64,000 nucleotides of DNA, from positions 928,001 to 992,000 of the forward strand of contig OY776215.1 in assembly GCA_963675495.1 (NCBI GenBank), written 5' to 3'. Under the pieces are notes generated by a model that was not told where the DNA came from, did not search any database, and was given only the letters and a program-made list of their open reading frames with translations. Each line of letters starts with the position of its first letter. Positions within the stretch are counted from its first letter, which is position 1. The DNA comes from an uncultured Methanolobus sp. GTDB lineage: Archaea > Halobacteriota > Methanosarcinia > Methanosarcinales > Methanosarcinaceae. Positions 33,311-57,935 of the stretch are shown piece after piece. Both the position numbers and the translations under genes were made by a program.

Positions 33311-33985
33311 ATGAGCTACGTTTATGCAGCGGTGGTAGGCATACTAATAGGCATCTTCATATTTGGTTTGAAGACCGGAGTAGGATGTGGTTTTTCCACT
33401 GTCAGAAAAAGAGATATCCTGATACTTGCAAGCAGTTACTTTGTCATTTCCATAATACTTGGAAGTCTTGTAGAAATAGTGGACCAATCCTATATTGAAG
33501 CTATTTCAAATCTTGGAATGACATTACATGTATTCATAGCACTTGTCCTCATTGGTGCAGGGATATATACACAGAAAAAATGGTCTTGTGGTCATGACGT
33601 TTCCAAAAAAACGTTCCTTGTGATCTCTGTACCCTGCCCGGTTTGCCTTACAGCTCTTTTTGTTTCATGCATGATACTGGCATCAACCCTTGATGTCAGC
33701 GGCTGGAAGGTCGGGGTGCTTGTAGGTTTTGTTTTCTTTATATCAGTAATATCATCAACATGGGTCTTCAGAAAAATGAAAAGAACACCTGAAGATCTTG
33801 GAACAACAATGATGTTCCTTGGAATTTTCTACCTTCTAGGAGCAATGATAGTGCCAGCTTACATCAAGGCAAAGAAACTCAACCTGGCACTAACTAGCGG
33901 GGGAGAGTTTGAGATCATTCCACTGTTGATATTCACTATCTTCATAATAGGGGGCTATGCCCTCAATAACATTAGAGGTCAATAA
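33311..33985 (+). CDS. DUF2162 family putative transporter (HmuT-like position)
   Basis: About 6-7 TM helices, FGLKTG.G and PCPVC motif; first gene of the DUF2162-ExbB-DUF2149-CobN cluster. Confidence 0.75.
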   Translation: MSYVYAAVVGILIGIFIFGLKTGVGCGFSTVRKRDILILASSYFVISIILGSLVEIVDQSYIEAISNLGMTLHVFIALVLIGAGIYTQKKWSCGHDVSKKTFLVISVPCPVCLTALFVSCMILASTLDVSGWKVGVLVGFVFFISVISSTWVFRKMKRTPEDLGTTMMFLGIFYLLGAMIVPAYIKAKKLNLALTSGGEFEIIPLLIFTIFIIGGYALNNIRGQ

Positions 33986-33987
33986 AA

Positions 33988-34611
33988 ATGGATGCTACTT
34001 CTTCATTGTTTGGTATATTGTACACATTTTCAGCTTCATTGCTGTACCCGGTGATCATTATTCTCATACTGCTGGTAGTCTTCTCCCTGATGCTTATAGG
34101 AGAATTCCTGTCAGAATATGCAAAAAGACATAGAGATATCGGAAACCTTGAACTGTGTTGTAACAAGGTAAGAGAACATGTCAGTTCCCAGAAATACGGA
34201 GAGGCTGCCAATTCACTACGCAATATAGAACAGAACTTCATGGTTACAAGCTTTGCAACTTCTGCTGCCGATCATCTTGAAAAGAACATGCTACCTGCTG
34301 TTGAATGGCTCTCCCAGGAATATGAGATAAAAATGGCAAAGAGACTTGAACAGACAAGGATCGTTGCAACTATCGCACCAATGCTCGGCCTGATGGGAAC
34401 TCTTATTCCCCTTGGACCTGCACTTATAGGTCTTTCACAGGGAGATATCGTACAGCTTGCAAACAACCTCATGATAGCTTTTGCTACAACAGTGATCGGT
34501 CTTTTCGCAGGAATTATCGGTTATGTGCTTACCCAGGTAAGAAAAAGATGGTACTGGCAGGATATGGCTGATATAGATTATATCCTCGATACTCTGGAGG
34601 TTGCGGAGTGA
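33988..34611 (+). CDS. MotA/TolQ/ExbB proton channel family protein (HmuU-like)
   Basis: IAPMLGLMGTLIPLGPAL..L..AFATTVIGL. Confidence 0.88.
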   Translation: MDATSSLFGILYTFSASLLYPVIIILILLVVFSLMLIGEFLSEYAKRHRDIGNLELCCNKVREHVSSQKYGEAANSLRNIEQNFMVTSFATSAADHLEKNMLPAVEWLSQEYEIKMAKRLEQTRIVATIAPMLGLMGTLIPLGPALIGLSQGDIVQLANNLMIAFATTVIGLFAGIIGYVLTQVRKRWYWQDMADIDYILDTLEVAE

Positions 34612-34976
34612 AGAGGAGAAGAAGCCGACGAACAGGACTCATAAATAATGAGGATGAACAAAACCCTCTTACAGGGGTTGCCAATCTTTTTGACATTGCG
34701 ATGGTTTTCTCAGTTGCACTTCTGGTAGCATTGGTTATGTCCTACCAGTTACCGGAACTTCTCAGTCCTACGGAAGATATAACGATAGTAAAGAATCCCG
34801 GGCAAAAGGACATGAAAATAATCATCAAGGATCAGGGTAAACCCATTGAGGTCCTGAACATGACAGACCAGATAGGCGGTGGAACAGGAGAAGCTCTCGG
34901 TACGGCCTACAAACTTGCAGACGGAAGAGTTGTTTATGTGCCAGAGGAAGAGGGGGCAAATACGACCTCTACTTAA
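34608..34976 (+). CDS. DUF2149 protein (ExbD/MotB-like single-TM partner, HmuV-like)
   Basis: NPLTGVANLFDIAMVF TM with Asp, TIVKNPG and G..LGTAYKLADGRVVYVPE; GTG start overlaps the ExbB-like stop. Confidence 0.85.
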   Translation: MKRRRSRRTGLINNEDEQNPLTGVANLFDIAMVFSVALLVALVMSYQLPELLSPTEDITIVKNPGQKDMKIIIKDQGKPIEVLNMTDQIGGGTGEALGTAYKLADGRVVYVPEEEGANTTST

Positions 34977-35083
34977 ATTTTCATTTTTTTTATTATCATT
35001 TAAACAAGTTAATTTGTTTTAAAACAATTTATATTTACTAAATCATAAAAATGGTGGATGAAAAGTCAGTATAAAATGATCAG

Positions 35084-38000
35084 ATGGTGGTCGATATGAT
35101 AGAAAAGAGAATGGTTGGAAAAAATTACATAGGAATTGCTGGAAAGATCAGTTTGATCCTTCTTTTAAGTATACTTATTTTTTCAGCCAATGCAATGGCA
35201 TTGGATCTGAACCAGTTTGAGTTTGTTGCGAATACGACCAGTGACTCAAGTGGAAATTTTACTTTTGAGAATATTCCAAATGGAGAATACGTCCTGTACT
35301 CAGTAAATGAATCATATTCTAAAAAATATGACGAATGGAGATGGTACAATGGAAAAATAGACATTAAAGTGAATAGTTCAGACATTACAGGTCTTGAACT
35401 TGAAGTAGCCAGTGGATCAGATATAGATCAAAACGAAGTATTGGCATATCTGGACAAGTCAGCAATAACAGGAAATACTTACCTCTATGCAATGAGCAAG
35501 TACTACTACAAAGCAAGTACGTTAGTTCTCATTGACAAACAAACAGATGAACTTATAGCTAACACCACATCTGATAGCAGCGGAAATTTTACTTTTGAAG
35601 ACATTCCAAATGGAGAATATGTCCTGTACTCGGTCAATGAATCATATTCTAAAAAGTATGATGAGTGGAGATGGTACAACGGAAAAGTAGACATAGAAGT
35701 AAACAGCTCAGACATTACAGACCTTGAACTTGAAGTAGCTAGCGGATCAAATATAGATCAAAACGAAGTATTGGCATATCTGGACAAGTCAGCAATAACA
35801 GGAAATACTTACCTCTATGCAATGAGCAAGTACTACTACAAAGCAAGTACGTTAGTTCTCATTGACAAACAAACAGATGAACTTATAGCTAACACCACAT
35901 CTGATAGCAGCGGAAATTTTACTTTTGAAGATATTCCAAATGGAGAATATGTCCTGTACTCGGTCAATGAATCATATTCTAAAAAGTATGATGAGTGGAG
36001 ATGGTACAACGGAAAAGTAGACATAAAAGTAAACAGCTCAGACATTACAGACCTTGAACTTGAAGTGGCCAGCGGATCAGATATAGATCAAAGCGAAGTA
36101 TTGGCATATCTGGACAAGTCAGCAATAACAGGAAATACCTACCTTTATGCAATGAGCAAGTACTACTACAAAGCAAGTAACGTAGTTCTGCTGAAACAAA
36201 AATCTTCTACTATCACCAATGAGCCTCATCTGAACGTATCAATAATTACCGGATATTCATCCTATGAGGAAGAGCTTGCCAATTTCACAAACAGGATTAA
36301 TTCCAATCCAGAGCTCAACATAAATGTTAGTACGTATATAACCACAAAATTACCTGACGATATAGATCTCAGCAATACGGATATAGTTTACATTAAGATG
36401 GTTACTCAGAGTGCTTCAGAATTTGAGGATACGCTTCAGGAAGCTATTGACAATGGTGCCCTTGTAATTGGTCAGAATACTTACCTGCCTGAGAGCAATT
36501 ACACACATCCATCAAATCCAAATTATGATACAATTACCAAATTCAAAGATCATTTGGATGATTATTGGTCAGGAGCCTCATTAGATGATACAAACTTTGA
36601 CAATCTCATATTCTATCTGGCACAGGAATATTACGGTCGTGCTGACCTCACTGTAGAAGAACCTAGTGTAATACCAATGGCAATCTATCATCCGGGAATG
36701 AAAGACATGCCTGCTGAATACCTCGTTGTCAATGCAGAGGAGTATTTTGGATGGTATGCTAACAGAACGGATGGACATGCTTTCGATGCAGATGCACCAA
36801 CTATAGGCATTACATTTTATGGTTCATACTACATGGATGACATGGACCCTATTAACAAACTCATAGAAGGGTTTGAAGAAAACGGTGCAAATGTAGTAGC
36901 ATGTTATGGTGGTACCAAAAATCATCTTGATGGATACCTGAATTACAGCAGCCAGACAAAAGTTGATGCTGTTGTTTCCTTCCACTATCGTGGAAATTAC
37001 TTTGATCTTGAGGAGCTTGGAGTACCTGTCATGAATGCCATACTCAACGGGTACATGAATACAAGCCAGTGGATTGAAACCAGCACTCCATTGCCAGTAA
37101 CTAATATGCTAAGACTTTACAGACCTGAAACTGAAGGTGCTATTGATCCTATTATGATCGGAGCTCTGGAAACGATTGTTGAGGACAACAGTACAGTAGA
37201 GAAGTACATTGGCCACGATGAACAGATAGATTGGCTTGTTGAACGTGCCATATCCCAGGCAAACCTTTCCATTGAAGAGGAATCTGACAAGAAGATAGCT
37301 ATCATCTACTACAACCATGGTGGCGGAAAGGACAATATCGGTGCCTCATATCTGGAAGTTGCACCAAGTATTGTGAACCTCCTTGTAGGAATGGATGATG
37401 CTGGTTACGACGTGAATGGAACACTCATACCCAACAAGACAGAACTCGTGGACCTCATGGTCTATCAGGGAAGAAATGTAGGTACATGGGCTCCAGGAGA
37501 ACTGGATAAGATGGTTGAGACCGGAAAGGCCGAGCTCATACCTGAAAGCACATATCTGGGCTGGTTCAATGAGCTTCCAGAAGTAAGACGAACAGAAGTT
37601 ATCGATATGTGGGGAGAAGCTCCAGGAGAGATAATGGTCTACACCGATGAAAGCGGTGACAGATTTATTGTCATCCCAAAGATAAGCCTCAGTGACAATG
37701 TGATCCTTGCACCACAGCCAACAAGAGGATGGTTGCAGGACAACGAAGTACTCTACCATGACGAGGAACTTCCACCTCATCACCAGTACATTGCATTCTA
37801 TCTGTGGATGCAGAACGAGTTCGATGCTGATGCAATGGTTAACATGGGAAGACACGGAACCGTTGAATGGTTACCAGGCAAGGACTTCTGCCTGCTCAGT
37901 GAGGAATGGCCTGCTATCATGACAGGTGATATACCTGTTGTCTATCCATACGTGATGGATGGTATGGGAGAAGGTCTCCAGGCAAAACGCAGAGGTAATG

Positions 38001-40357
38001 CAATTATCATCGACCACCTGATACCACCTGTTGTGTCAGCTGGAAGTTATGGAAACTACAGTGTATTGAACAACAAGATCAGTGTTTACACAACCTCGGT
38101 CACTGAATCCGAAGCACTGCTCCAGGCTCATTTGCAGGATATAATCACCCTTACAATGGAACTTGGACTGGACAGCAGAGTGAATATGAGTCTTGCACAG
38201 GACAATGCAACTGTGGGCATCTTCCTTGATGATCTGGATGACGTACTAAGAGAACTGAGAAGCCAGTCCATGCCTTACGGACTTCACATACTTGGTGAAG
38301 CACCACAGGGCGATGAGCTTGTAGGAATGGTCAAATCCATGCTTGGAGATGACTACACAGATGCTGTAGCAGCTTATAATGACACGGAATCTGCACCATT
38401 TGATATGTTGAGCCTTGTTCTGCTCGATAGTATGAACATCACAGATGCCCAGATGCAGGTTCTTGGAAATACTTCTGCAACAGTGGAGACCGATCTGACC
38501 AATGCCATCAATTACGCAGAACTTCTGGCTGAATCAGATAACGAGATCCAGCAGGTCCTAAAGGCAATGGATGGAGGATACATCGAACCAAATCTTGGTG
38601 GAGATCCGATACTCCGTCCTGATACACTACCTACTGGCAGGAATTTCTATGCATTTGATGAGCAACTGATACCAACAGAAAACGCATGGAATGATGGAAC
38701 AGCACTTGTGGACCAGTGGATAGCCGATTACTATGCAGAACACGGTGAGTATCCAAATAAGGCAGGATACATCCTTTGGGCAGGTGAATCAACCCGTCAC
38801 GAAGGTGTAATGGAAGCACAGATATTCTACCTACTTGGAGTCAAACCTGTATGGGATGAGGATGATAGTGAAGTCGTTGATGTGGAACTTATACCAGCAG
38901 CTGAACTGGGAAGACCTCGCATCGATGTCATGGTACAGATATCAGGACTTTACAGGGATACTTTCCCAATGAAGGTAGACCTTATCGACAAAGCTGTAAG
39001 ACTTGCTTATGAGCAGGATGAACCTGACAACTATGTCAGGGAGAACACCAATGCTCTTCAGCTAGCACTTAACGACACGATCGGTAACTACAACCTGTCA
39101 CTTGACATTGCACAATTCAGGATATTCGGTCCGGAAGATGGTTCCTATGGTACCGGAATGGCAAACGCTGTGTCAGCCAGTAATACATGGGAAGACAACA
39201 GTGAACTCGCTGAACTTTACATCAATAAGATGAGCTACATTTACGGTGAAGATATCAGAGGGCAAACTGTTGAGGAGTACATAAAGCAAAAAACCGGAGA
39301 GGATATCCAGATCGATGACACTCTTGTCTTTGAGAACATACTTGATGGAACTGACGTACTTGTACATAGCAGAAGTTCCAACACATACGGTGCCACAAAT
39401 ACCGATGAGTTCTATCAATATCTGTCAGGCCTTTCCAATGCCATTAAGGCAGTATCCGGTGAAGAGCCAGACCTGCTGATAGCAAACCTGGAAAATCCTG
39501 CTGACCTTAAAGTAGAGGATGTGGAAACATACCTTGAGAATGAACTGTACACTGTGTTCAGTGATATGAATATCCAGGGATGGATGTCACACGGATACGA
39601 AGGTGCCAGAATGATGATGAACTTCGTTGAGAACCTCTGGGGAATTGAAGCCCTGACACCTGGTCTTGTAACCGAAGACATGTGGGCTCAGACCTATGGA
39701 AAGTTCGTTGCAGATAAGACAGTATCAGACTGGATGAAAGATGCCAGTCCGTATGCCTATGAGTCAACAACCGGCAGACTGATCGAAGTAGTCAGAACAG
39801 GAAACTGGAATCCTTCAGATAAAGTACTGGAAAGTCTTGTGAATGAGTATATTGACACTGTTGTTGAAAATGGTGTAACATGCTGTCACCACACCTGTGG
39901 TAATCCAACGCTTGATGAATTCATTACGAGTGCGGTTGATTCCGGAAAGATACAGGTTTCACAAGCAAAGATGGACGAGTACAAAAAGATCATGGAAGAA
40001 ACCAGAAATCCACTTCCAAAAACTCCAACATCAGCACCAACTCCAACAACAACTCCAAGCAGCAAAAAGAGTTCCAGTAACACGGGGACTGAACTGAATG
40101 TTGTCGAAACCAGTGGAGGTAACCAGAGCACCTTCACAGATTCCGGTGCAGGAGACATACTGGAAGAGGAAGCATCCATGAAGTCACCTGTTGAAGACAG
40201 TTATGTCGAGGGATATGAAATGACAAGAGAAACTGTTGAGGATGATTCTGAAAGTAGTCCATATTCCATATCGGGTTCAGATGTGATAGCATCTGTACTG
40301 GTGATCGGACTTGTAGGAACGATGTATATAGGATTCTGGAGAAGGAGGAAATTGTAA
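35084..40357 (+). CDS. CobN/ChlH-family chelatase-like protein 1, secreted and C-terminally anchored, with three N-terminal beta-sandwich repeats
   Basis: Signal peptide, GRHGTVEWLPG, LPTGRNFY, RHEG, RPRIDV..SGLYRD, TCCHHTCGN and TM-GFWRRRKL; exact start uncertain (35084/35096/35111). Confidence 0.88.
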   Translation: MVVDMIEKRMVGKNYIGIAGKISLILLLSILIFSANAMALDLNQFEFVANTTSDSSGNFTFENIPNGEYVLYSVNESYSKKYDEWRWYNGKIDIKVNSSDITGLELEVASGSDIDQNEVLAYLDKSAITGNTYLYAMSKYYYKASTLVLIDKQTDELIANTTSDSSGNFTFEDIPNGEYVLYSVNESYSKKYDEWRWYNGKVDIEVNSSDITDLELEVASGSNIDQNEVLAYLDKSAITGNTYLYAMSKYYYKASTLVLIDKQTDELIANTTSDSSGNFTFEDIPNGEYVLYSVNESYSKKYDEWRWYNGKVDIKVNSSDITDLELEVASGSDIDQSEVLAYLDKSAITGNTYLYAMSKYYYKASNVVLLKQKSSTITNEPHLNVSIITGYSSYEEELANFTNRINSNPELNINVSTYITTKLPDDIDLSNTDIVYIKMVTQSASEFEDTLQEAIDNGALVIGQNTYLPESNYTHPSNPNYDTITKFKDHLDDYWSGASLDDTNFDNLIFYLAQEYYGRADLTVEEPSVIPMAIYHPGMKDMPAEYLVVNAEEYFGWYANRTDGHAFDADAPTIGITFYGSYYMDDMDPINKLIEGFEENGANVVACYGGTKNHLDGYLNYSSQTKVDAVVSFHYRGNYFDLEELGVPVMNAILNGYMNTSQWIETSTPLPVTNMLRLYRPETEGAIDPIMIGALETIVEDNSTVEKYIGHDEQIDWLVERAISQANLSIEEESDKKIAIIYYNHGGGKDNIGASYLEVAPSIVNLLVGMDDAGYDVNGTLIPNKTELVDLMVYQGRNVGTWAPGELDKMVETGKAELIPESTYLGWFNELPEVRRTEVIDMWGEAPGEIMVYTDESGDRFIVIPKISLSDNVILAPQPTRGWLQDNEVLYHDEELPPHHQYIAFYLWMQNEFDADAMVNMGRHGTVEWLPGKDFCLLSEEWPAIMTGDIPVVYPYVMDGMGEGLQAKRRGNAIIIDHLIPPVVSAGSYGNYSVLNNKISVYTTSVTESEALLQAHLQDIITLTMELGLDSRVNMSLAQDNATVGIFLDDLDDVLRELRSQSMPYGLHILGEAPQGDELVGMVKSMLGDDYTDAVAAYNDTESAPFDMLSLVLLDSMNITDAQMQVLGNTSATVETDLTNAINYAELLAESDNEIQQVLKAMDGGYIEPNLGGDPILRPDTLPTGRNFYAFDEQLIPTENAWNDGTALVDQWIADYYAEHGEYPNKAGYILWAGESTRHEGVMEAQIFYLLGVKPVWDEDDSEVVDVELIPAAELGRPRIDVMVQISGLYRDTFPMKVDLIDKAVRLAYEQDEPDNYVRENTNALQLALNDTIGNYNLSLDIAQFRIFGPEDGSYGTGMANAVSASNTWEDNSELAELYINKMSYIYGEDIRGQTVEEYIKQKTGEDIQIDDTLVFENILDGTDVLVHSRSSNTYGATNTDEFYQYLSGLSNAIKAVSGEEPDLLIANLENPADLKVEDVETYLENELYTVFSDMNIQGWMSHGYEGARMMMNFVENLWGIEALTPGLVTEDMWAQTYGKFVADKTVSDWMKDASPYAYESTTGRLIEVVRTGNWNPSDKVLESLVNEYIDTVVENGVTCCHHTCGNPTLDEFITSAVDSGKIQVSQAKMDEYKKIMEETRNPLPKTPTSAPTPTTTPSSKKSSSNTGTELNVVETSGGNQSTFTDSGAGDILEEEASMKSPVEDSYVEGYEMTRETVEDDSESSPYSISGSDVIASVLVIGLVGTMYIGFWRRRKL
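35224..36180 (+). repeat. Three tandem 330-bp (110-aa) intragenic repeats
   Basis: ANTTSDSSGNFTF..YKAS unit recurs at 330-bp spacing; copies 2 and 3 are nearly identical in DNA. Confidence 0.92.
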
Positions 40358-40578: not shown

Positions 40579-40645
40579 GAGCACTCCTGAATAACCGCCA
40601 AACAAAACGGAGAGTGTTCTGAACACGTTATCGGGGGATAACATG
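40579..40645 (+). promoter_or_regulatory. Conserved structured 5'-leader element, copy 1 (riboswitch-like)
   Basis: P1 GAGCACTC/GAGTGTTC around loop ATAACCGCCAAACAA; P2 GTTATC-GGGG-GATAAC abutting ATG 40643. Confidence 0.7.
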
Positions 40646-46600: not shown

Positions 46601-46636
46601 ATGTATGTAGGATTCTGGAGAAGAAGGAAAATGTAA
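40643..46636 (+). pseudogene. CobN/ChlH-family chelatase-like protein 2, interrupted by one in-frame TAA (42527-42529)
   Basis: ORFs 40643-42529 and 42560-46636 are in the same frame with an open 30-nt gap (..ANLT*ILSSDSSVAYMTK..). Signal peptide on the first part; HFGTHGTQEWLPG, TCCHHTCGN and TM anchor on the second. Confidence 0.75.
40735..42050 (+). repeat. Three tandem near-identical 441-bp (147-aa) intragenic repeats
   Basis: GCTTATTC anchor at 40748, 41189 and 41630; unit ITYIAYSDAYSENEA..ENAENLLMYLA. Confidence 0.93.
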
Positions 46637-46720: not shown

Positions 46721-46929
46721 ACAATTATTAGTTTTTATGATTATACACATAAGTATAAACACAATTAGCATTGTGTTTCAATAAAGTAATGTAATCATAA
46801 ACAATGTGGTGGTTCGTTGAAAAAATTATATATATACTCATTAAAACACACGTAGTGCTATGCAAGAAGAAACTAAGTTTTGGAAAAGCATAGTATATTT
46901 TATGCTTTTTTAATTCCAGATTATAATTA

Positions 46930-46999
46930 TTGTGAATGCTCCTTTGCAGCCGCCAAGCAAAGAAGGGAGTGTCCTCACAAGTTATCGGGGGATAACATG
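46930..46999 (+). promoter_or_regulatory. Conserved structured 5'-leader element, copy 2
   Basis: P1 ATGCTCCTTT (46936-45) / AAGGGAGTGT (46963-72) around CAGCCGCCAAGCAA; P2 GTTATC-GGGG-GATAAC abutting ATG 46997. Confidence 0.7.
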
Positions 47000-49900: not shown

Positions 49901-52900
49901 GTTGATGGTATTTTTGAGTACATAGTAGTTGGAGACAGCACATATGACCCTACTACTGAAACCAGTTCATATACATCAAGGGATGCGCAGATTGACTGGA
50001 TAGTGAACCGGTCCATAAACTGGGCTGAGCTGAAACTCAATGAGAACAAGGACAAAAAAGTTGCAGTCATCTACTACAACTATCCATCCGGGAAGGACAA
50101 TATCGGTGCAAGTTACCTGGACACCATCTCAAGCATGAGACTTATGCTCAACAAAATGAATGAGAGTGACTTTTCAGTTACAGGCATTCCTGAGAACAAC
50201 AGCCAGCTTCTGGAAATGTTGTGGGCACAGGGTATCAATGCCGGTTCCTGGGCACCTGGCGTCATGAACGAGATGGTTGAGAACAAGACCGAATGGGGAC
50301 TTCAGCTCATACCAATGGAAACGTATCACCAGTGGTTTGAAGAGGAGATCCCTGAGGAGCTCAAAGAACAGGTAATACAGGAATGGGGAGAACCATGGTC
50401 CGAAGACCTGCCACAGAACAAGAGTCTCATGATGTGGGAGAATGATATCGGTGAGAAGTACCTGGTCATCCCGACTGTCCAGTTCGGTAATGTCTGGCTC
50501 ATGCCACAGCCTGCAAGAGGATTCCTACAGAACGATAATGCACTCTACCATAGCAGCCTTGTTCCTCCACCACATCAGTACATTGCTTTCTATCTATGGC
50601 TGAACAATGACTGGGATGCCGATGCTATAATCCACTTCGGAACTCATGGTACACATGAATGGCTACCGGGACAGGCATACGGAATGAACCGCTCTGCTGA
50701 GTGGGCACCGGTACTGTTGCAGGACCTACCTAACATCTATCCATACATAGTGGCAAATGTCGGTGAAGGTCTTACTGCAGAATATCGTGGCAATGCACTG
50801 ATAATTGATCATATGACACCAACCCTTGAACGATCAGGGACCTATGGTGAACTGGCAAACATGTCACGGTTCATACAGGAATATTACGGACCTGAGATGT
50901 CATTGCAAACCAAGCAAGCGTATCAGATGGCTATAATCGATGAAATGGTAATTTCTGGCGTCGACGTAGACCTTGAGGTTAATTCAACCGATCTGTATCT
51001 CTATAGTGAGGCAGAGTTTGATATCTTTGTCAAGGATATACTTCACGAATATCTGGAAGATATCGAAGGTGAGAACATTCCTTACGGAATGCATATACTT
51101 GGTGAAGTACCTTCAACGAATGCCACAGGCCCATACAGGGATGAACTCTCGGGTATGGTACGCTCAATGATGGGAAGTTACTTTGAGGAGAACGTAACAG
51201 CAGCATTCTATCCTCTGGAAGAGTACCCACTTGGAATCCCATTCAATGATACACAGGTAGAACTGCTGGTCTGGGAAGTCATAAGCAACGGAACAAGTCC
51301 CAATGACGCACAGATCATGGTCTATGGTGAGGTAAATGAATCACTGAACATCGATCTGGAATTCGGCCTCTCATGTAAACAGAATCTCATTGACAGTTCC
51401 ATTGAAATGGACCGTGTGATCCTTGCACTGAGTGGTGGTTTCATTCCTGCAGGACCGGGAACCGATCCTGTGATGAACCCCAATGCAGTACCAACTGGAA
51501 GGAACTTCTATGGTGTCAATCCTGAACTCTATCCTTCAGAAGCAACCTGGAAGCTGGGCAAGATGCTTGCACAGCAATTGATAGATGACTACTACCAAAA
51601 CCATGGTGAATATCCACGTAAAGTATCATTCTCAAGGTTTGGTGTAGAGTTCATCAGGGACCATGGTACCCTGGAAGCAGAAGCACTGTATATGATGGGG
51701 GTCCAGCCAGTCTGGGACAGGAATGGAAAGGTGATAGGTGTTGAGCTGATACCTGAAGAAGAGCTAGTTCCAGACTACGACACCTCAATTGCCGGCAGGC
51801 CACGTATTGACATCGTTTACACCACCGCAGGCATGCGTGATGCATTCCCTGAAAAGTTGAAGATGCTTGATAATGCTGCAAAAATGGCAAATCTTGCTGA
51901 ACCTGGTAACTATCCAAACTATGTGAACATCAGTACACAGGCAATCTATACGGATCTTTACGCTTCATTCCTTAACAGCACCGGCAATGAAACATATTCA
52001 GCTGACTTGGCAGATACACTATCCACCATGCGCTGTTTCGCTGTTCGTGACGGAACCTATGAAATAGCTGTTGGAAATGCCATTGAGGCCAGTGGAACAT
52101 GGGAAAATGAATCAGAGATAGGAGAGCTGTATCTTGATAAGATGGGATATGCCTATGGCAGTGAGCTCTGGGGATACGATTGTTCTGACCTGCTCAGAGG
52201 CAATCTGATGAATGTAGATGCTTCAGTACATTCAGACTCATCTAACCTGTACGACACACTGGACAATGATGATTTCTTCCAGTATTTCGGTGGTTTGAAC
52301 CTTGCAACAAGATATGTGAGCGGAAAAACACCTGATATGTACGTTTCCGACACAAGGAATCCAGATAAGGCAGAAATTGTCGAGCTTGGCAGGTACATCA
52401 ACGTAAACATGCGTTCCAGATATCTTAACGATAAATGGATAGAAGGTATGAAGGGTTCAGGCTATGCCGGTGGCAGAATGATGGCTGAGTTCGTGGACAA
52501 TCTCTGGGGATGGGAAGTATCCAATTCCGAACTTGTTGACGATAAAATGTGGGAGAACGTGTTCAACACATACACCACTGATGAAATGAAGGAGTTCTTC
52601 AATGCAAACAACCCAGGAGCCTATCAATCCATTACAGGCAGGATGCTGGAAGGTGTACGCAAGGGATATATTGACCTGCCAGACGATGCTGTCAATAAGC
52701 TTGTGAAAGACTATATGGAATCAGTTGCAGAGAATGGAGCAACATGTTGTCACCACACATGTGGGAATCCATCGCTTGATACCTTTGTTCAGGGTAATAT
52801 ACCAGCTGACTTTAGTCAGCAAACGATAGATGCATACAAGAATCAGATGTTCGAGGCAACGTTGAGAAAAGAACTCCAGACACAGCCTTCTGAGAGTACG

Positions 52901-53227
52901 ACAACATCCAGTAGCATTCCAAGTAGTAGTTCAAGTAGTAGCACCGGAACCGAGCTGAAGATCACTGAATCCGGGTCAGGTTCAGCAAATCAAACATTGG
53001 AAGCAAACGGTGGTGCAGGAATGGACATGAACGCACCTGTCCAGGACTCTACAAAATCAACCCCTGACAACTATGTAGAAGGTTATGAAATGACAAAAGA
53101 GACAACTGCAACTACGTCTGAAAACAGTGGCTTTACGGCTAGCAGTTCAGACATAATAGCTTCGGTATTTGTTCTTGGTGCAGTCGGAGCTATGTATATA
53201 GGATTCTGGAGAAGAAGGAAGTTCTAA
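46997..53227 (+). CDS. CobN/ChlH-family chelatase-like protein 3, secreted and anchored, with five diverged N-terminal head-domain repeats
   Basis: Start MQMKIKSIL parallels paralog 2 (MQLKIKSIL); HFGTHGTHEWLPG, VPTGRNFY, TCCHHTCGN and GFWRRRKF. Confidence 0.9.
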   Translation: MQMKIKSILILGILLLVSLSGIAAADEQKISIMYVAWMPDPALELASQNSLFAGDINYIYIPSYNTTTWTGPSDELIEAANNGLLEEQDIIFCDMLSAAVFDPINTSFSQAHDAGISLIDINSINTPSYFDYISDGTDDDMICNLYNNMGTATETERQNAEHLLKYLAQEYGNHSEITDEWDKIRVLCIAWEPSAALQMASETNKHRDVIEYTYIPSYNTTTWTGPSDELIEAGSSGVLNDQDVIFCDMLASSIYEPMDNVFSNASENGAVFVDLRSADTPDYFDHVYSGSEDNELCNLYNSMGTITEEEIKSSKDFLTFLASEYGDRTDITDDWNKVNILYIAYAPSTALQLASEMSEHTDDIKFSYLPSYNTTTWAGPSDELIEAGNSIFLEKQDVIFCDMLSASVFDPMNSSFYAAQETGASLLDIRSVNTPEYFDYVSNGSIDDTMCNYYNNMGTETDDEQLNAQNLLEYLATEYGDRDEITDTWDNKIKVMYIAYAPAQALELASQNNMHSDEIEYTYIPSYNTTTWAGPSDELLEVASSGLLDEQDVVFFDMVTASVYEPLNDSLISAKNNGVSFVDIRSMNTPEYFDYVSNGSIDDPICNYYNSMGINSEVEKKNAENLLIYLAKEYGNHPEITDNWIAIKVMYIAWAPSDSLATASKTNPYSQNIDYTYIASYNTTTWAGPSDDLLAAGEGGLLEEQDVIFCDMLAGSIFEPIDQFLRNAHDNGTVLVDIRSTNTPDYFDHVYNGSENNTLCNYYNNMGTATGAQLNNAENLLIYLAKELGVNPGLTDDWQYATLGPISLPDVGLYHPDYEGKYFESTDEYLQWYAEDTGTHRMYDPSRPTIGMWMHRSDVKDGHTEVVDALLRDIESKDCNVILGIDTFDDIVKFYCDENNESLVQSVISLKSFRLNYFDNEKGLRELEELDVPVLRGIVVETTNVYDPADENRGIPNGQVVRKTIGPNVDGIFEYIVVGDSTYDPTTETSSYTSRDAQIDWIVNRSINWAELKLNENKDKKVAVIYYNYPSGKDNIGASYLDTISSMRLMLNKMNESDFSVTGIPENNSQLLEMLWAQGINAGSWAPGVMNEMVENKTEWGLQLIPMETYHQWFEEEIPEELKEQVIQEWGEPWSEDLPQNKSLMMWENDIGEKYLVIPTVQFGNVWLMPQPARGFLQNDNALYHSSLVPPPHQYIAFYLWLNNDWDADAIIHFGTHGTHEWLPGQAYGMNRSAEWAPVLLQDLPNIYPYIVANVGEGLTAEYRGNALIIDHMTPTLERSGTYGELANMSRFIQEYYGPEMSLQTKQAYQMAIIDEMVISGVDVDLEVNSTDLYLYSEAEFDIFVKDILHEYLEDIEGENIPYGMHILGEVPSTNATGPYRDELSGMVRSMMGSYFEENVTAAFYPLEEYPLGIPFNDTQVELLVWEVISNGTSPNDAQIMVYGEVNESLNIDLEFGLSCKQNLIDSSIEMDRVILALSGGFIPAGPGTDPVMNPNAVPTGRNFYGVNPELYPSEATWKLGKMLAQQLIDDYYQNHGEYPRKVSFSRFGVEFIRDHGTLEAEALYMMGVQPVWDRNGKVIGVELIPEEELVPDYDTSIAGRPRIDIVYTTAGMRDAFPEKLKMLDNAAKMANLAEPGNYPNYVNISTQAIYTDLYASFLNSTGNETYSADLADTLSTMRCFAVRDGTYEIAVGNAIEASGTWENESEIGELYLDKMGYAYGSELWGYDCSDLLRGNLMNVDASVHSDSSNLYDTLDNDDFFQYFGGLNLATRYVSGKTPDMYVSDTRNPDKAEIVELGRYINVNMRSRYLNDKWIEGMKGSGYAGGRMMAEFVDNLWGWEVSNSELVDDKMWENVFNTYTTDEMKEFFNANNPGAYQSITGRMLEGVRKGYIDLPDDAVNKLVKDYMESVAENGATCCHHTCGNPSLDTFVQGNIPADFSQQTIDAYKNQMFEATLRKELQTQPSESTTTSSSIPSSSSSSSTGTELKITESGSGSANQTLEANGGAGMDMNAPVQDSTKSTPDNYVEGYEMTKETTATTSENSGFTASSSDIIASVFVLGAVGAMYIGFWRRRKF
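47080..49400 (+). repeat. Five diverged ~155-aa intragenic repeats
   Basis: SYNTTTW(T/A)GPSD and QD(V/I)(I/V)F(C/F)DM each recur five times. Confidence 0.88.
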
Positions 53228-53230
53228 AGT

Positions 53231-53270: not shown

Positions 53271-53447
53271 TTTTTCAAAGTTAATGAATTGTTTTATAAG
53301 TATAAACATGTATAATTGTTTTTACTAACATATGTAAATCTAATATTAATTTACATCGTGTTTTCGAATACGCGTATAATTTAAATTAATTCTACGTAAA
53401 ATGAGGATGATAATCAAGATGTTTTGAATTAATAAAACAATGGTCAT

Positions 53448-53512
53448 GAACACTCCTGTTCAGCCGCCAAGCAATTGCAGGAGTGTCCAACACATTGTCG
53501 GGGGACAATATG
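53448..53512 (+). promoter_or_regulatory. Conserved structured 5'-leader element, copy 3
   Basis: P1 ACACTCCTGT (53450-59) / GCAGGAGTGT (53477-86) around CAGCCGCCAAGCAA; P2 ATTGTC-GGGG-GACAAT abutting ATG 53510. Confidence 0.7.
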
Positions 53513-53620
53513 CAGTGTAAATATATAATATTGTTAATATTAAGTTTTTCCCTATTTTTTTCAATAACGAATGTATCATCAATTGATTATCGTAGTATAG
53601 ATCAAACAAACTTGATTTAA
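53510..53620 (+). CDS. 36-aa upstream ORF resembling the signal peptide of CobN-like 2/3 (leader peptide or remnant)
   Basis: MQCKYIILLILSFSLFFSITNVSSIDYRSIDQTNLI*; starts at the ATG held in the conserved P2 hairpin. Confidence 0.4.
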   Translation: MQCKYIILLILSFSLFFSITNVSSIDYRSIDQTNLI

Positions 53621-53657
53621 ATCAACTTACATGACTAACTTGGTGGTGAGGTACGAT

Positions 53658-56600
53658 ATGGTACTTAAAAACATTAAAAGATACAAAAATATCTTTGCAG
53701 CAGCCCTTATAATAGTATTCTTAGCAACAGCATTTGCTGCTGCGGAGAGTGCTGGTAACGATACAATAAATTCAACAGGCAATACAGTAGATGCAGCTTT
53801 ATCTGAAAACGATACAATTGATGCAAATACTTCTACTATAGTGAAAATTCCGGACATGGATATAAAGCCAAAAATAAGCTACGTGCTGTCGCGTCCTTAT
53901 GCGGTTACACTTATGCAGAACGTAGCTGCAGACCCTCAGATAAGCTCACAGATGGACATAAGCATCTATCTTGGCACATCCTATGCAGACCTGGGTTTTG
54001 ACCTGAGCGATCAGGATCTGGTTGTTCTGAGAAACCTCGATGCCTATGTTGTGGACACTATCGCACCAACAGTAAATGAAGCGAAAACAAACGGTGCACA
54101 CGTTGTCTCAATAGGAGAGACCCTGGAAGCCTATGGACTTCATAACGTAAATATATCAGACCCGGAATACTTCGATATCAACCTGTATCAGACATACTCA
54201 TCTCAGGAAAATTTCAAAGGACTCACGACTTTCCTGGGAGTTAAGTTCTTCGGTTTGAACTATAGTATCACAGCACCTGTGGAAAGACCTGTCTACGGCA
54301 TCTATCATCCTCTTGCGCCCCAAATATATGGAAATCTTACTGATTACCTTGATTGGTATAGTTCAACAGGAACATATGATGCAGACAGACCTACCATTGC
54401 GATAGTAACTACCAGTTACATAAGAGTGGAAAGGGATATGCCCCTGCTTGACCCACTTGTTGAGGATATAGAAGGAAAAGGATACAACGCAATTGTAACA
54501 ACTTATGCCTACAAGGATGATAAGTCCCTGAGCTACCTTATGAAGGACAACAGATCCATTGCAGATGCTGCTATTGTGATCTCACGTGGGTCACGCCTTC
54601 ATTATTCTGATAACGAACATGGAATTTCCGACCTGCAGACACTTAACATAACTGTCCTGAACGGTGCCCGCCTGTTCTCAGGAGTCAGTGTGGAAGAATG
54701 GGAGAACAGTGTTCATGGTGTGCCACCTGCCCAGCAGTATCAGGTAGCCTACGCAGAACTTGACGGGATCATCGAACCAATTGTAATCAGCGGAAAAGCC
54801 ATAGATGAAGCAACTGGAATCGAATATAACCAGCCAATTGATTATCAGATAGACTGGCTCGTCGACAGAACAATAGCCTGGGCTGAACTACACCAGAAAT
54901 CAAATTCAGAGAAGAAAGTGGTCATACCATATTATAACCCGGAAGGTGGTAAAGCAGACATGGGTGCGGATATTGATTACTATCTTGACGCACAGGCAAG
55001 TCTGGCAAACATTCTTGAAGCTATGCAAGAGAGAGGTTATGACGTTGGCAGTGAACCACTTCCAAATTCCAGCGAACTTGCAGGTATGATGATGGAAAGC
55101 GGGCACAATATTGGTAGCTGGGCTCCCGGAGAACTGACCGAATGTGTTGAAAATGGCAGCACAATACTCATACCTGAATCCCAGTACATGGAATGGTTCG
55201 AAGAACTCCCACAGGATAAAATTGATGAAATGACAGCAATGTGGGGTGAAGCACCTGGAAATATCATGGTCTATGAGAATTCCACAGACAAATATCTGGT
55301 CATACCTGTGCTCGAATTTGGAAATGTTCTTCTTGCACCTGACCCACAACACGGATGGTCCTCAAGTGAAAAAGCAATGTATAACAATGCTTCATATCCG
55401 CCAACACATCAGTGTTTTGCTTTTTACAAGTACATGTCAAGGGAATACGAAGCTGATGCATTGTTCACCATATTCTCAAGCGTTGAGCTGATGCCCGGTA
55501 AAGAATGCGGTCTTTCCGCAAAGGACTGGGGAGCACTCTTACTTGAAGATATGCCACATATCCACGTACTTCCAATGGACGCAGAAGGTGTCTTTGACAG
55601 AAGAAGAGCAAATATGCTCATCATTGATTTCATGACACCGACAATAGTGCCGGCAGGTCTTTATGGCGACCTTGCAAACCTCCAGCAGGAGATCACATTA
55701 TTCAAACAGGCAACAGACAGCGCGGTGAAAGAGAGTTACAGGGAGAGCATCATAAACCAGACAAGAAACCTGAGCCTTGACAATGACCTCAGTGTTGACC
55801 TGGACCCAATTTCAGGTGATGCAGACCTTACAGATACTTTCATTGATGAACTCTCGGATTATCTCTATGAACTGAAGACTGCCTACATGCCGTATGGATC
55901 TCACATACTTGGTGAGGTTCCTGAAGGCGAAAGTCTCATCATGCTCATAAAAGGGATGCTTGGAGACGAATATGTAGATCATGTGGAAACACTTGGTGGA
56001 AACGAGGAAATTTCAATCTTACTATTGAATGAAACAATACTGAACGGAAGCACCCCTTACGATGCGCAATTAAAGGTACTTGGTCAGAACTCCACAGAAC
56101 TTGGAAGTGATCTGGATCTGGCTCTTGAATATATGGGAAGGATACAGGACTGTGAATGTGAGATTACTAAGATACTCGATGCACTTGATGGTACGTATAT
56201 CACACCGGGACCATCCGGTGACCCTATCAGGAACCCTGATGCATTGCCAACAGGCAGGAATCTCTACACATTTGATGACCGCCTTATACCTACAAAAGCA
56301 GCATGGGATGTTGGTTCACAACTTGCAGACGATATGCTTGTATTGAAACTTGAAGAAGATGGTCAATATCCTGAAAAGATAGCTTTCCTGCTATGGTCTG
56401 TGGAAACCACAAGAAACCAGGGTGTCATGGAATCCGAGATATTCAAACTTCTGGGAGTAGAACCCTATTATGACAGCAAGAACAGAGTAAAAGGGTTCAC
56501 ACTAATCGATTCCGAGGAACTTGGCAGATCAAGGGTAGACGTGATGGTGTTAACCTCAGGTCTTTACCGTGATGTGTATCCAAGCAAGATAGAACTCATA

Positions 56601-57935
56601 GATGAAGCTATCAGAATGGCAGCAAGAGCTGACAATGATACATATCCCAACTATGTCAGACTACATTCCAATGAAACATATCAGGGTCTCATAGATGAAG
56701 GATACAATGAATCAGTGGCATACAACCTATCAGTTTCAAAGATATTCTGCCCTCCACCCGGCGGATATACACCGGGAATCCAGGAAGCCATAAGCAGTGA
56801 TACATGGGAAGATTCAGACGAGATAGCCGACCTCTACATTGACAGGATGGGATACATCTATGGTCAGGAAATATGGGGAGAGCATTACTCAAGCGTATTG
56901 AAGAAAAACCTTGCAGATGTTGATACTGCAGTGTTTAGCAGAACATCGAATCTTTACGGTGTGCTTGACCACAATATGGTAGCCGCTTATTTCGGTGGTT
57001 TGAGCATGTCAGTTGAAAGAATCAGCGGCTCTGCACCTGACATGTATATCAACGATCTCAGCAGCTCTGCAGATATTGAAACCCTAAGTGAGTTCCTTAA
57101 CAAGGACTTACGCTCACGTTACCTTAATCCAAACTGGATAGAAGGAATGATGGGTAACGGTTTTGACGGTACAAGATATATGGATTCAGTCTTTGAAGTC
57201 CTGCGTGTGTTTGATGTAACAGACCCATCTCTTGTTACTGATGACATGTGGAATGAGATGTATGATGTCTACGTCGAGGACAAATATGACCTTGGTGTAA
57301 ACGATTACCTTGAAACTACAAATCCATATGCTTCTCAGTCAATGAAGGCTACATTAATGGAGTCCATTCGCACGGGCTATTGGAACCCATCAGATGAAGT
57401 TACCCAAAAAATCGTGAAGGAATACGTTGAATCGGTTAACGAAAATGATGTTACCTGCTGCCACCATACCTGCGGCAATCCATTGCTGGATAAGTTCATA
57501 CAAGAGAATATGGATGCAGCAGACATTAGTCAGCAAGATCAGGAAGACTACAAGAAAAAAATGTACGATGCAACCCTGAGAGAAGTGATTCAGACACCAC
57601 AAACTGAACAAGAAGAAACGGTTAGCAGACAAAGTAGCAGTTCAGCTGGAACGGATTTGAAAATCGTTGAAGCCAGTTCAGGTTCAGGGTCGACCAACCA
57701 GACAACTGCGACTGATTCCGGAGCAGGGATGGATGCTGACACACCTGTACAGGATGTACAACGATCTACACCGGATGATTACGTAGAAGGTTATGAAATG
57801 ACAAAGGAAAGTGTCACGAATACCGAAAGCTCAAGCGGTTTCTCAGTAACAGGTTCGGAGCTGGCAGCTTCTATACTTGTGCTTGCCGGAGTAGGAGCTA
57901 TGTATGTAGGATTCTGGAGAAGGAGGAAATTATGA
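53658..57935 (+). CDS. CobN/ChlH-family chelatase-like protein 4, secreted and anchored, lacking the HxGxHG motif
   Basis: GGTGGTGAGG SD before ATG 53658 (alternative start 53631), signal peptide, LPTGRNLY, SGLYRD, TCCHHTCGN and GFWRRRKL; FTIFSSVELMPG replaces HFGTHGTxEWLPG. Confidence 0.88.
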   Translation: MVLKNIKRYKNIFAAALIIVFLATAFAAAESAGNDTINSTGNTVDAALSENDTIDANTSTIVKIPDMDIKPKISYVLSRPYAVTLMQNVAADPQISSQMDISIYLGTSYADLGFDLSDQDLVVLRNLDAYVVDTIAPTVNEAKTNGAHVVSIGETLEAYGLHNVNISDPEYFDINLYQTYSSQENFKGLTTFLGVKFFGLNYSITAPVERPVYGIYHPLAPQIYGNLTDYLDWYSSTGTYDADRPTIAIVTTSYIRVERDMPLLDPLVEDIEGKGYNAIVTTYAYKDDKSLSYLMKDNRSIADAAIVISRGSRLHYSDNEHGISDLQTLNITVLNGARLFSGVSVEEWENSVHGVPPAQQYQVAYAELDGIIEPIVISGKAIDEATGIEYNQPIDYQIDWLVDRTIAWAELHQKSNSEKKVVIPYYNPEGGKADMGADIDYYLDAQASLANILEAMQERGYDVGSEPLPNSSELAGMMMESGHNIGSWAPGELTECVENGSTILIPESQYMEWFEELPQDKIDEMTAMWGEAPGNIMVYENSTDKYLVIPVLEFGNVLLAPDPQHGWSSSEKAMYNNASYPPTHQCFAFYKYMSREYEADALFTIFSSVELMPGKECGLSAKDWGALLLEDMPHIHVLPMDAEGVFDRRRANMLIIDFMTPTIVPAGLYGDLANLQQEITLFKQATDSAVKESYRESIINQTRNLSLDNDLSVDLDPISGDADLTDTFIDELSDYLYELKTAYMPYGSHILGEVPEGESLIMLIKGMLGDEYVDHVETLGGNEEISILLLNETILNGSTPYDAQLKVLGQNSTELGSDLDLALEYMGRIQDCECEITKILDALDGTYITPGPSGDPIRNPDALPTGRNLYTFDDRLIPTKAAWDVGSQLADDMLVLKLEEDGQYPEKIAFLLWSVETTRNQGVMESEIFKLLGVEPYYDSKNRVKGFTLIDSEELGRSRVDVMVLTSGLYRDVYPSKIELIDEAIRMAARADNDTYPNYVRLHSNETYQGLIDEGYNESVAYNLSVSKIFCPPPGGYTPGIQEAISSDTWEDSDEIADLYIDRMGYIYGQEIWGEHYSSVLKKNLADVDTAVFSRTSNLYGVLDHNMVAAYFGGLSMSVERISGSAPDMYINDLSSSADIETLSEFLNKDLRSRYLNPNWIEGMMGNGFDGTRYMDSVFEVLRVFDVTDPSLVTDDMWNEMYDVYVEDKYDLGVNDYLETTNPYASQSMKATLMESIRTGYWNPSDEVTQKIVKEYVESVNENDVTCCHHTCGNPLLDKFIQENMDAADISQQDQEDYKKKMYDATLREVIQTPQTEQEETVSRQSSSSAGTDLKIVEASSGSGSTNQTTATDSGAGMDADTPVQDVQRSTPDDYVEGYEMTKESVTNTESSSGFSVTGSELAASILVLAGVGAMYVGFWRRRKL

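Follow-up and report, generated by a model that had tools for sequence, protein, structure and literature searches.

Exported CobN-family proteins encoded behind a DUF2162-ExbB-DUF2149 trio in Methanolobus: a candidate system for metal salvage from tetrapyrroles

Why does a methanogen carry a row of large cobaltochelatase-like proteins with apparent export signals, directly behind genes for three small membrane proteins? The question is raised by a window of 64,000 nucleotides from an uncultured Methanolobus sp. (assembly GCA_963675495.1, contig OY776215.1, positions 928,001 to 992,000 of the forward strand), in which positions 33311 to 57935 hold four CobN-family genes preceded by genes for DUF2162, an ExbB-like channel protein and DUF2149. 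An original prediction had read this region as an archaeal version of the Bacteroidota hmuSTUV set, in which four surface-anchored (de)chelatases are coupled to an ion-driven motor. Here, we find chelatase-family enzymes that, judged by their sequences, are exported and tethered by their C-termini, and whose genes directly follow those of a conserved membrane-protein trio including homologs of HmuU and HmuV. The interpretation we favor, at a rough probability of 0.55, is that metals are salvaged from metallo-tetrapyrroles outside the cytoplasm, by a system akin to BtuS/HmuS in a cell without an outer membrane. Of the original prediction, the topology, a partial homology to the Hmu proteins and the doubt about the automatic annotation stood, whereas DUF2162 as an equivalent of HmuT and a set of four intact (de)chelatases did not.

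The module region comprises nine open reading frames (ORFs), all on one strand, and the genes for DUF2162, the ExbB-like protein and DUF2149 abut or overlap. Pfam matches bore out these three and the four CobN homologs at the positions originally given:

33311..33985, + strand: DUF2162 membrane protein of 224 amino acids (aa) with eight predicted helices and invariant intramembrane Cys/His residues (PF09930, 231.9 bits)
33988..34611, + strand: MotA/TolQ/ExbB-family channel protein, homolog of Bacteroidota HmuU (PF01618, 47.6 bits; cut-off 22.9)
34608..34976, + strand: DUF2149 protein with one N-terminal transmembrane (TM) helix and a small outside domain, homolog of Bacteroidota HmuV, occupying the place of ExbD (PF09919, 119.5 bits)
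35084..40357, + strand: CobN1, with signal peptide, three Ig-like (CarboxypepD_reg) repeats, chelatase body and C-terminal anchor with WRRRKL
40643..42529, + strand: N-terminal piece of the CobN2 gene (628-aa ORF), with signal peptide and three near-identical domains resembling the chelatase head
42527..42529, + strand: in-frame TAA that splits the CobN2 gene
42560..46636, + strand: catalytic part of CobN2, without a signal peptide of its own, with C-terminal anchor and WRRRKM (PF02514, 1089.9 bits)
46997..53227, + strand: CobN3, with signal peptide, five head-like repeats (47078-49351), chelatase body and C-terminal anchor
53631..57935, + strand: CobN4, with signal peptide, a chelatase body lacking the HxGxHG histidines and the DNDD motif, and C-terminal anchor

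The 628-aa ORF thus lies between CobN1 and CobN2. The four CobN-family ORFs match PF02514 at 975-1090 bits and are the only PF02514 matches in the genome, which is a single contig of 2.87 Mb. As originally stated, no CobS/T or ChlI/D gene was found among the window ORFs scanned.

Are these proteins exported? All four CobN ORFs end with a hydrophobic helix followed by W-RRRK, and Sec-type signal peptides are present on CobN1, on CobN4 and, when read from the ATG at 46997 rather than from the listed TTG at 46880, on CobN3. The claim that each homolog carries both elements therefore holds for the anchor in 4/4 copies and for the signal peptide in three, CobN2 being the copy without one; the exported and anchored topology known from HmuS applies to CobN2 only if it is joined to the upstream ORF across the TAA. 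The N-terminal add-ons of the CobN proteins are of Ig-like or repeat type, and in CobN1 a 330-bp tandem repeat spans 35252-36189 (2.8 copies, 94%). N-glycosylation sequons occur at 1.0-2.4 per 100 aa in the window CobN proteins and at 1.36 in the S-layer protein, compared to 0.48 pooled over 11 cytoplasmic window proteins and 0.23 in the cytoplasmic CobN of Haloferax. In other genomes, a hydrophobic N-terminal signal and a C-terminal helix with basic tail were present in 14/14 module-linked CobN ORFs readable to their end, a fifteenth being masked there. Because of the signal peptides, the C-terminal TM helix with its basic tail, the sequon enrichment and the conservation in relatives, an outside placement of the CobN proteins is well supported by sequence features, from which (and not from SignalP or TMHMM) topology was judged. 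This agrees with the outward orientation originally proposed.

The second CobN gene is a special case. The 628-aa ORF starts with a signal peptide nearly identical to that of CobN3 and is in the same frame as CobN2, from which it is separated by the single TAA (42527-42529). In congeners that have the gene, the codon at this position encodes Phe (three) or Tyr (one) and the frame is open in 4/4 genomes; therefore, this strain holds a nonsense-interrupted CobN2 copy. The same TAA stands in contigs from four runs, which cover two samples of a single study, although these contigs may be the assembly's own source. Read-through by pyrrolysine was rejected, as the stop is TAA and not TAG. The closest sampled relative (G079) has three tandem CobN places and gave no match to a query spanning the CobN2 junction.

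The module is not restricted to this genome. Of 301 genomes sampled across the phylum, 94 have DUF2149 (PF09919), among them 34 of the 36 from the family of the window; the best 120 matches of a DUF2149 protein search all belong to Methanosarcinaceae, and a protein named from Methanolobus sp. ZRKC4 shares 98% identity with that of the window. In Methanosarcina acetivorans, too, control searches gave matches to PF02514, PF09930, PF01618 and PF09919. Among 20 loci from several families, which were taken around DUF2149 hits and hence contain DUF2149 by construction, the order DUF2162-ExbB-DUF2149 was found in 19, and a CobN-family gene was directly adjacent in 15. In this family, CobN places often stand in tandem, with two to five in a row (five in G218, three in G012 and G243). 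Some family genomes also contain shorter CobN-family frames of 1268-1277 aa, which give the top PF02514 scores (1263-1313 bits) and may be cytoplasmic forms:

G023, C47, 19941-23285: shorter CobN-family frame
G164, C70, 18624-21968: shorter CobN-family frame
G326, C310, 7140-10439: shorter CobN-family frame
G312, C1, 1556173-1559499: shorter CobN-family frame

To which branch of the chelatase family do the exported proteins belong? A maximum likelihood tree ('quick' LG+G4, SH-aLRT support only) was built from 33 sequences over 1273 columns, many rows of which deviate in composition; ChlH/BchH, the Sinorhizobium sequence (an ORF of only 911 aa) and L025 (masked C-terminus) were left out. The tree falls into three groups without an outgroup and hence does not tell whether HmuS and the archaeal clade are sisters. 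One group holds five CobNs encoded beside ChlID- or CobST-type genes (support 100), one holds nine Bacteroidota HmuS (support 100), and the third unites all 18 archaeal module-linked proteins with a plasmid gene of Trichlorobacter lovleyi (support 96). The window CobNs are thereby separated from the five CobNs beside ChlID or CobST, in keeping with the original view of them as something other than canonical CobN. The window paralogs are not one another's closest relatives: CobN2 joins L014 and L016, CobN3 joins L011 and L013, and CobN4 joins L020 and L024, loci of other families (support 100). The array therefore unites old lineages, and its members probably differ in substrate.

CobN2 is nearly equidistant from the solved structures of HmuS (9d26, 422 bits), ChlH (402) and CobN (401). 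All window CobNs stay below the cut-offs of TIGR02257 for CobN (473-555 bits; cut-off 822) and TIGR02025 for the Mg-chelatase H subunit (530-599 bits; cut-off 829), while NF004645 ('cobaltochelatase subunit CobN'; cut-off 1619) is passed by CobN1 with 2391 bits, the others scoring 1126-1255.

At the level of residues, equivalents of the essential HmuS residues His-538 (cis non-Pro) and Glu-577, which are superfamily-wide and not HmuS-specific, are present in CobN1, CobN2 and CobN3 and in 15/18 archaeal sequences overall; CobN1 retains the catalytic His equivalent in the motif 'NMGRHGT'. CobN4 instead reads 'AL--FTIFSS' and 'DHNM', with Phe in place of the catalytic His. These changes are common to its L020 and L024 orthologs, and across this clade HxGxHG reads 'FTIFSS' or 'FSIFS' and DNDD reads 'DHNM' or 'EHPM'. 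Because the HxGxHG histidines are lost, CobN4 is probably a non-catalytic binder. With CobN2 interrupted by a stop and CobN4 lacking these histidines, the original count of four (de)chelatases was overstated. None of the window paralogs has both site-1 heme ligands of HmuS, Met-79 and His-254 (CobN2 has the Met only, CobN1 the His only). At HmuS positions 1208-1209, the four paralogs read D-E, D-D, D-D and N-M, compared to D-H in 9/9 HmuS. The segment aligned to HmuS 770-905 has 30-39 residues with 0-3 Met in 18/18 archaeal sequences and 32-139 residues with 6-21 Met in 9/9 HmuS. Because the heme ligands, the Asp-His dyad and the Met-rich insertion are missing, the window CobNs are, as far as conserved residues tell, not HmuS in the strict sense.

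How close, then, is the module to the hmu system? De-chelation of heme by HmuS has been shown experimentally, and the authors of that work considered it unclear what archaea use HmuS/CobN/ChlH homologs for (PMC12583661). HmuS of P. gingivalis is predicted to be periplasmic and membrane-anchored; the same paper describes HmuT as a putative permease, HmuU as a member of the ExbB family and HmuV as hypothetical (PMC13227078). In B. fragilis, BtuS1 and BtuS2 are required for obtaining iron from heme, and a third, salvage-type CobN family (BtuS) is credited to Rodionov et al. 2003 (both PMC6460266). In M. barkeri, two proteins which the authors call BtuS rise in Fe(II)/Cys and FeS2 compared to Fe(II)/HS- (PMC10846266); by their name, they may correspond to the window CobNs. 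The idea of a salvage-type CobN and the BtuS label for M. barkeri homologs are thus already in print; apart from PMC10846266, our literature searches on CobN/BtuS-like proteins in methanogens returned nothing on the archaeal module.

A search of 1.84 billion representatives yielded 505 DUF2149 relatives, and an alignment of seven DUF2149 sequences led to 80 loci of Bacteroidota type, the bacterial survey being limited to this Bacteroidota-like subgroup. In 8/8 Bacteroidota loci examined, an ORF of about 220 aa, an ORF of about 715 aa, a CobN-family gene, a membrane protein of about 233 aa, ExbB and DUF2149 follow each other in this order. In L058, the only locus scanned with Pfam, the first two ORFs are HmuY and a TonB-dependent receptor. 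The CobN labelled B. thetaiotaomicron has 1463 aa, the same length as the solved HmuS chain. Compared to all eight loci, the window proteins share 34-41% identity between the ExbB-like protein and HmuU and 42-46% between DUF2149 and HmuV. At the level of sequence, HmuU and HmuV therefore have archaeal homologs. HmuY and HmuR are absent from the window ORFs scanned, so that the hmuY-R-S-T-U-V set is incomplete and represented by homologs of S, U and V only. The originally proposed likeness to hmuSTUV accordingly stands for HmuU and HmuV, with homologs in 8/8 loci, and fails in that DUF2162 is not HmuT and the CobNs are not strict HmuS.

A second bacterial relative is closer in gene order. The best plasmid match was pGLOV01 of Trichlorobacter (Geobacter) lovleyi, which encodes, in order, a TonB-dependent receptor, DUF2162, MotA/ExbB, DUF2149, CobN, ExbB, ExbD, TonB and a TonB-dependent receptor, and which adjoins cobT and bzaF. 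Two cobalamin riboswitches (107 and 65 bits) are located just upstream of this module. The T. lovleyi CobN has a signal peptide, a V-E-G-F-E-M motif and a C-terminal anchor. In the T. lovleyi genome paper, a CobN without CobS/T was noted, its role was given as unknown and a cobalamin-linked role was argued (PMC3403914). With respect to the BtuS type, whose definition we know via PMC6460266 (CobN-like, outside cob clusters, linked to uptake or B12), the window proteins fall into one clade with this riboswitch-controlled gene. As the T. lovleyi module lies behind cobalamin riboswitches and beside cobT/bzaF, the DUF2162-type module is tied to the corrinoid or cobalt economy in bacteria, and the regulation of the nearest bacterial relative favors corrinoid or cobalt no less than heme.

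What might DUF2162 contribute? The CPVC motif noted originally is present at residues 108-112 (P108-C109-P110-V-C112 in the window protein). K21, G25-C26, D96 and P108-C109-P110-x-C112 are invariant in 19/19 homologs, and H73 and C120 are conserved in at least 90%. The AlphaFold2 (AF2) model has a mean pLDDT of 81.6 and eight helices. By hhalign, DUF2162 matched the NicO/DsbD_2-type protein of the same genome with 90.5% probability (E 1.4e-6, 118 columns, P-C-P motif aligned), and the latter adjoins cbiMQO-like ORFs, as read from the ORF sequences of its neighbors. DUF2162 is not detectably related to HmuT, which has no Pfam family (hhalign probability 0.3%). Two roles fit DUF2162: a transporter of soft metals, which we favor, or a conduit of the CcdA kind that delivers reducing power to the cell exterior. 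A literature text search gave no paper containing 'DUF2162'. In L023, from another family of the phylum, a DUF2162 is fused to an N-terminal TPR/SNAP-like region (10306-11511, 401 aa) and is placed between NosD-like anchored beta-helix proteins and two ExbB-DUF2149 pairs.

The aspartate that the original prediction had seen in the DUF2149 TM segment was confirmed as Asp29, located in 'NLFD' within one N-terminal TM helix and invariant in 14/14 archaeal homologs; it presumably parallels the TM Asp of ExbD, TolR and MotB. The ExbD/TolR family PF02472 matched neither DUF2149 nor any other protein of the genome. The tails of the CobN proteins share G22, V41-x-G43-x-x-M46 and G83 across 18 sequences. 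The juxtamembrane V-x-G-x-x-M motif precedes the anchor in the archaeal, T. lovleyi and HmuS proteins, and not in the cytoplasmic CobNs compared. A complex prediction from alignments of the ExbB-like protein, DUF2149, DUF2162 and the C-terminal 90 residues of CobN2 returned a score of 0.00 and was uninformative either way. A second ExbB-DUF2149 pair is encoded at genome positions 736120-739946 (L127), without DUF2162 and directly after an 871-aa protein; proteins in this position (871-873 aa) have two PF07752 S-layer domains, a signal peptide and a C-terminal anchor. In L023, NosD-like anchored proteins adjoin ExbB-DUF2149 pairs. Because pairs without DUF2162 also adjoin other anchored surface proteins, DUF2162 is, unlike the pair, the part specific to the CobN module.

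Two of the CobN genes are extended by additional head-like domains. The 628-aa ORF contains three units of about 147 aa (DNA repeat of 441 bp, 40742-42047, 3.0 copies, 97%), and CobN3 contains five more divergent head-like units (47078-49351); the 628-aa ORF and the N-terminal extension of CobN3 share 36-41% identity. A profile of the repeat unit matched the CobN proteins' own N-terminal domains weakly (E 3e-5 to 3e-3). The AF2 model of a single unit (pLDDT 96.2) gave its best structural match in a VIA-wide search of 48,161 chains with the N-terminal head domain of ChlH (4zhj_A 21-209, Z 10.8, root mean square deviation 2.6 Å over 125 residues), the next match having Z 8.3 and residues 3-121 of M. 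tuberculosis CobN Z 7.5. The ChlH head was obtained from this search only, as Foldseek returned generic periplasmic-binding or flavodoxin-like lobes at E of about 1e-3. In HmuS, heme is bound at the interface between head and neck (PMC12583661), and from this analogy it would be a reasonable inference, and nothing more, that the head-domain arrays capture substrate. We met no mention of such arrays in the literature on the family, in which no search was aimed at them.

If the window proteins are not biosynthetic enzymes, which proteins insert the metals? The genome has two small CbiX genes. About 10 kb upstream of the module, genes resembling CobB/CobQ-like amidase, NifH, NifD and Mur ligase stand in a row (18097-23057, - strand), which we take to be the F430 biosynthesis genes cfbB, cfbC, cfbD and cfbE. 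In F430 synthesis, nickel is inserted by CfbA, which is itself a small CbiX. Since the two CbiX genes and the cfbBCDE-like genes cover biosynthetic chelation, the 'cobaltochelatase' label is doubtful, as originally suspected. Elsewhere in the genome, about 1.2 Mb from the module (2212602-2215317, L139), adjacent genes encode a ChlI-like protein (373 aa; AAA_lid_2, Mg_chelatase) and a ChlD-like protein (526 aa; VWA). A profile search found no CobS in the genome (19 bits).

So far, our findings suggest the following course of events. Beneath the S-layer, metal-ring compounds from the environment (corrinoids, heme, Ni-tetrapyrroles) would be bound by the tethered CobNs, which would free the metal or pass it on, and the extra head domains of two paralogs may aid substrate capture. 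DUF2162, as a Cys/His-lined and probable relative of the NicO/DsbD type, would then move this soft metal (Co, Ni or Fe) through the membrane. The ExbB-like/DUF2149 pair would use the ion gradient for mechanical work on the anchored enzymes and would thereby replace, outside the cell, the ATP-driven ChlI/ChlD motor of the cytoplasmic chelatases. That the motor also powers an import through DUF2162, as originally proposed, is pure inference.

Several observations weigh against such a salvage system. The full set of Met-79, His-254-Gly-Arg, Gln-299 and His-1209 occurs in 9/9 Bacteroidota HmuS and in 0/18 archaeal sequences, and archaeal positions 1208-1209 are mostly D-D, as in canonical insertion-type CobN; with the Met-rich insertion and the HmuS heme-site residues missing, the role of a heme de-chelatase is not directly transferable. 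Purified HmuS converts heme without HmuU/V, so that a motor is not needed for catalysis there (PMC12583661). An S-layer-type protein followed by ExbB-DUF2149 without DUF2162 was found in 5/5 Methanolobus genomes examined (L127, L129, L131, L132, L133), and the motor may serve anchored surface proteins generally rather than chelatase chemistry. For the fold of DUF2162, Foldseek gave no match in the PDB at E <= 0.001, and the best VIA-wide matches were bundles resembling half of a major facilitator superfamily (MFS) protein, at Z 7.5 within the noise for helical proteins. The ChlI-like/ChlD-like pair is kept without a cytoplasmic CobN to serve, as every CobN of the genome has export signals. Finally, the CobN2 copy at least, broken by a stop here and without a match in G079, is dispensable.

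Which substrate, and which enzymatic direction, would then be the most plausible? A specific role in acquiring external corrinoids or the cobalt bound in them, for an organism with a very high corrinoid demand and with DUF2162 as the route for cobalt or corrinoid, would sharpen the salvage interpretation rather than oppose it, and we regard it as a possible but still doubtful narrowing. The sole bacterial member of the archaeal clade sits behind two cobalamin riboswitches beside cobT/bzaF and TonB-dependent receptors, the DUF2162 profile matches the NicO-type protein next to cbiMQO-like ORFs, and a cobalamin-linked role without CobS/T was argued in PMC3403914. However, the window contains no riboswitch at gathering thresholds, four old paralog lineages suggest more than one substrate, and in M. 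barkeri, the abundance of the proteins named BtuS changes with the source of iron and sulfur (PMC10846266). This response to iron source rather suits heme-iron harvesting as in Bacteroidota, by functional HmuS equivalents that release Fe(II) from heme, and so do the narrow lead of HmuS among the solved relatives of CobN2 and the anchor, tail motif and HmuU/V partners held in common. Nevertheless, we consider it improbable: no archaeal sequence of the 18 has the full HmuS residue set or the Met-rich insertion, HmuY and HmuR are lacking, HmuT is replaced, and HmuS forms a separate clade. Even less can be said for a correct annotation, by which the CobNs would be biosynthetic Co or Ni chelatase subunits working with the ChlI/ChlD-like AAA+ pair of the genome. 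The existence of this pair, the pass of CobN1 in NF004645 and D-D at 1208-1209 as in canonical CobN would fit, but the export and anchor signals on the window copies are kept in 14/14 readable relatives, the clade lies apart from CobNs beside ChlID/CobST, TIGR02257 and TIGR02025 stay below their cut-offs, class II CbiX chelatases are present, and the nickel chelatase for F430 is CfbA; a biosynthetic function is thus very improbable.

A different matter is what the motor does. In its boldest form, the salvage interpretation would have an ion-driven ExbB-like/DUF2149 stator take over, outside the cell where ATP is lacking, the job of the AAA+ proteins ChlI/ChlD, pulling on the conserved tail of the tethered enzymes to drive metal removal from, or exchange in, tetrapyrroles, with DUF2162 as a gate for soft metals; this mechanism is speculative, and we would not expect it to hold in full. 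Vice versa, the pair might be a general, Tol-like envelope motor for C-terminally anchored surface proteins under the S-layer, and the CobNs could act without it. Such a motor would explain the S-layer-domain proteins beside ExbB-DUF2149 pairs without DUF2162 in all five Methanolobus genomes examined and the NosD-like anchored proteins beside pairs in L023, and would agree with HmuS working in vitro without HmuU/V (PMC12583661). As CobN and DUF2162 accompany the pair in archaea and Thermodesulfobacteriota alike, and HmuS does so in Bacteroidota, and as the tail motif is common only to the exported chelatase-like proteins among those compared, we hold a purely general motor to be unlikely. The reading as extracytoplasmic metal salvage from tetrapyrroles is retained as the preferred one.

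The surroundings of the module are of Methanosarcinales type, with a PF07752 S-layer protein, NifH/NifD-like, CobB-like, Mur-ligase-like and archaeal translation genes upstream. A surface protein of 2286 aa with four PF07752 S-layer stretches, nine LVIVD repeats and a PKD domain is encoded at 9170-16030 (- strand), and directly after CobN4 (58058-63352, + strand) follows a subtilase (Peptidase_S8) of 1764 aa with eight DUF5018 stretches, a PGF-pre-PGF domain and a hydrophobic C-terminal end. An Rfam scan of the window at gathering thresholds found no RNA family and hence no riboswitch. When upstream regions were compared by k-mer and regular expression (n = 18), no element was common to all, and a repeat of the 'GTTACCCAAA' type occurred in three loci only. 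Such 'GTTACCCAAA'-like words, partly inverted, lie 58-183 bases upstream of DUF2162 in L010, L011 and L014, which belong to three other genera of the family, and not in the window; they may be a regulator site. In L015, a DUF2162-ExbB-DUF2149 trio that lacks CobN is preceded, at positions 1-200, by near-identical repeats in a row, each about 45 bases long and rich in pyrimidines ('CCCTCTTCTTTCTCTCTGTTCTCCGTGTTTT...').

What would follow if metal salvage is correct? The 'cobaltochelatase' labels on many methanogen genes would be misleading, and organic ring compounds would offer methanogens and related organisms a source of Co, Ni or Fe in sulfidic sediments, which are poor in free metals; this would bear on trace-metal limitation of methane production. 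The archaeal question raised in PMC12583661 gains a concrete frame of exported copies, HmuU/V homologs, a NicO-like membrane protein and B12-regulated bacterial kin. Because the archaeon has no outer membrane, the module also speaks for HmuU/V-type pairs acting together with the chelatase-like protein, or with its membrane partner, and not with a TonB-dependent receptor. Should the stator mechanism be true, HmuU/HmuV-type pairs would serve the chelatase-like protein itself rather than an outer-membrane receptor, and the pairs beside S-layer-type proteins would represent a general archaeal force transmission of the Ton/Tol kind on anchored surface proteins.

How does the module compare to known systems? 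With canonical class I chelatases (CobN-CobST, CobN-ChlID, ChlH-ChlID), the window proteins share a full-length PF02514 body, the HxGxHG and NVGEG motifs and D-D at HmuS positions 1208-1209 as in CobN. The canonical proteins are cytoplasmic, unanchored and encoded beside AAA+/VWA genes, whereas the window proteins are predicted to be exported, have no such partner nearby and belong to another clade. With the stators ExbB-ExbD, TolQ-TolR and MotA-MotB, the module has in common an ExbB-family channel and a small bitopic protein with an invariant Asp in its single TM helix. Only this topology and the TM Asp are alike, as DUF2149 is not recognized by the ExbD family model, and the archaeal module comes without TonB, Pal or a flagellar partner in a host without an outer membrane.

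Closer is the hmuYRSTUV system with HmuS (PDB 9d26), likewise an extracytoplasmic class I chelatase-family protein with a C-terminal helix anchor and a V/G-x-x-M juxtamembrane motif, encoded with ExbB-family and DUF2149 partners; equivalents of its catalytic His/Glu are found in three of the four window copies. In contrast to hmu, the archaeal module has neither the HmuY hemophore nor the HmuR receptor, contains the unrelated DUF2162 in place of HmuT, and is arranged as T'-U-V-S instead of S-T-U-V. Its CobN proteins are several tandem paralogs, some with extra head arrays, which form a separate clade and lack the HmuS-specific residues. The T. lovleyi cluster, and with it the BtuS concept, shows the same four genes in the same order and a CobN that is sister to the archaeal clade (support 96). 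There, one CobN and its partners stand between TonB-dependent receptors and a true ExbB-ExbD-TonB set under two cobalamin riboswitches, whereas the archaeon, without an outer membrane, a receptor or a riboswitch match, has four paralogs.

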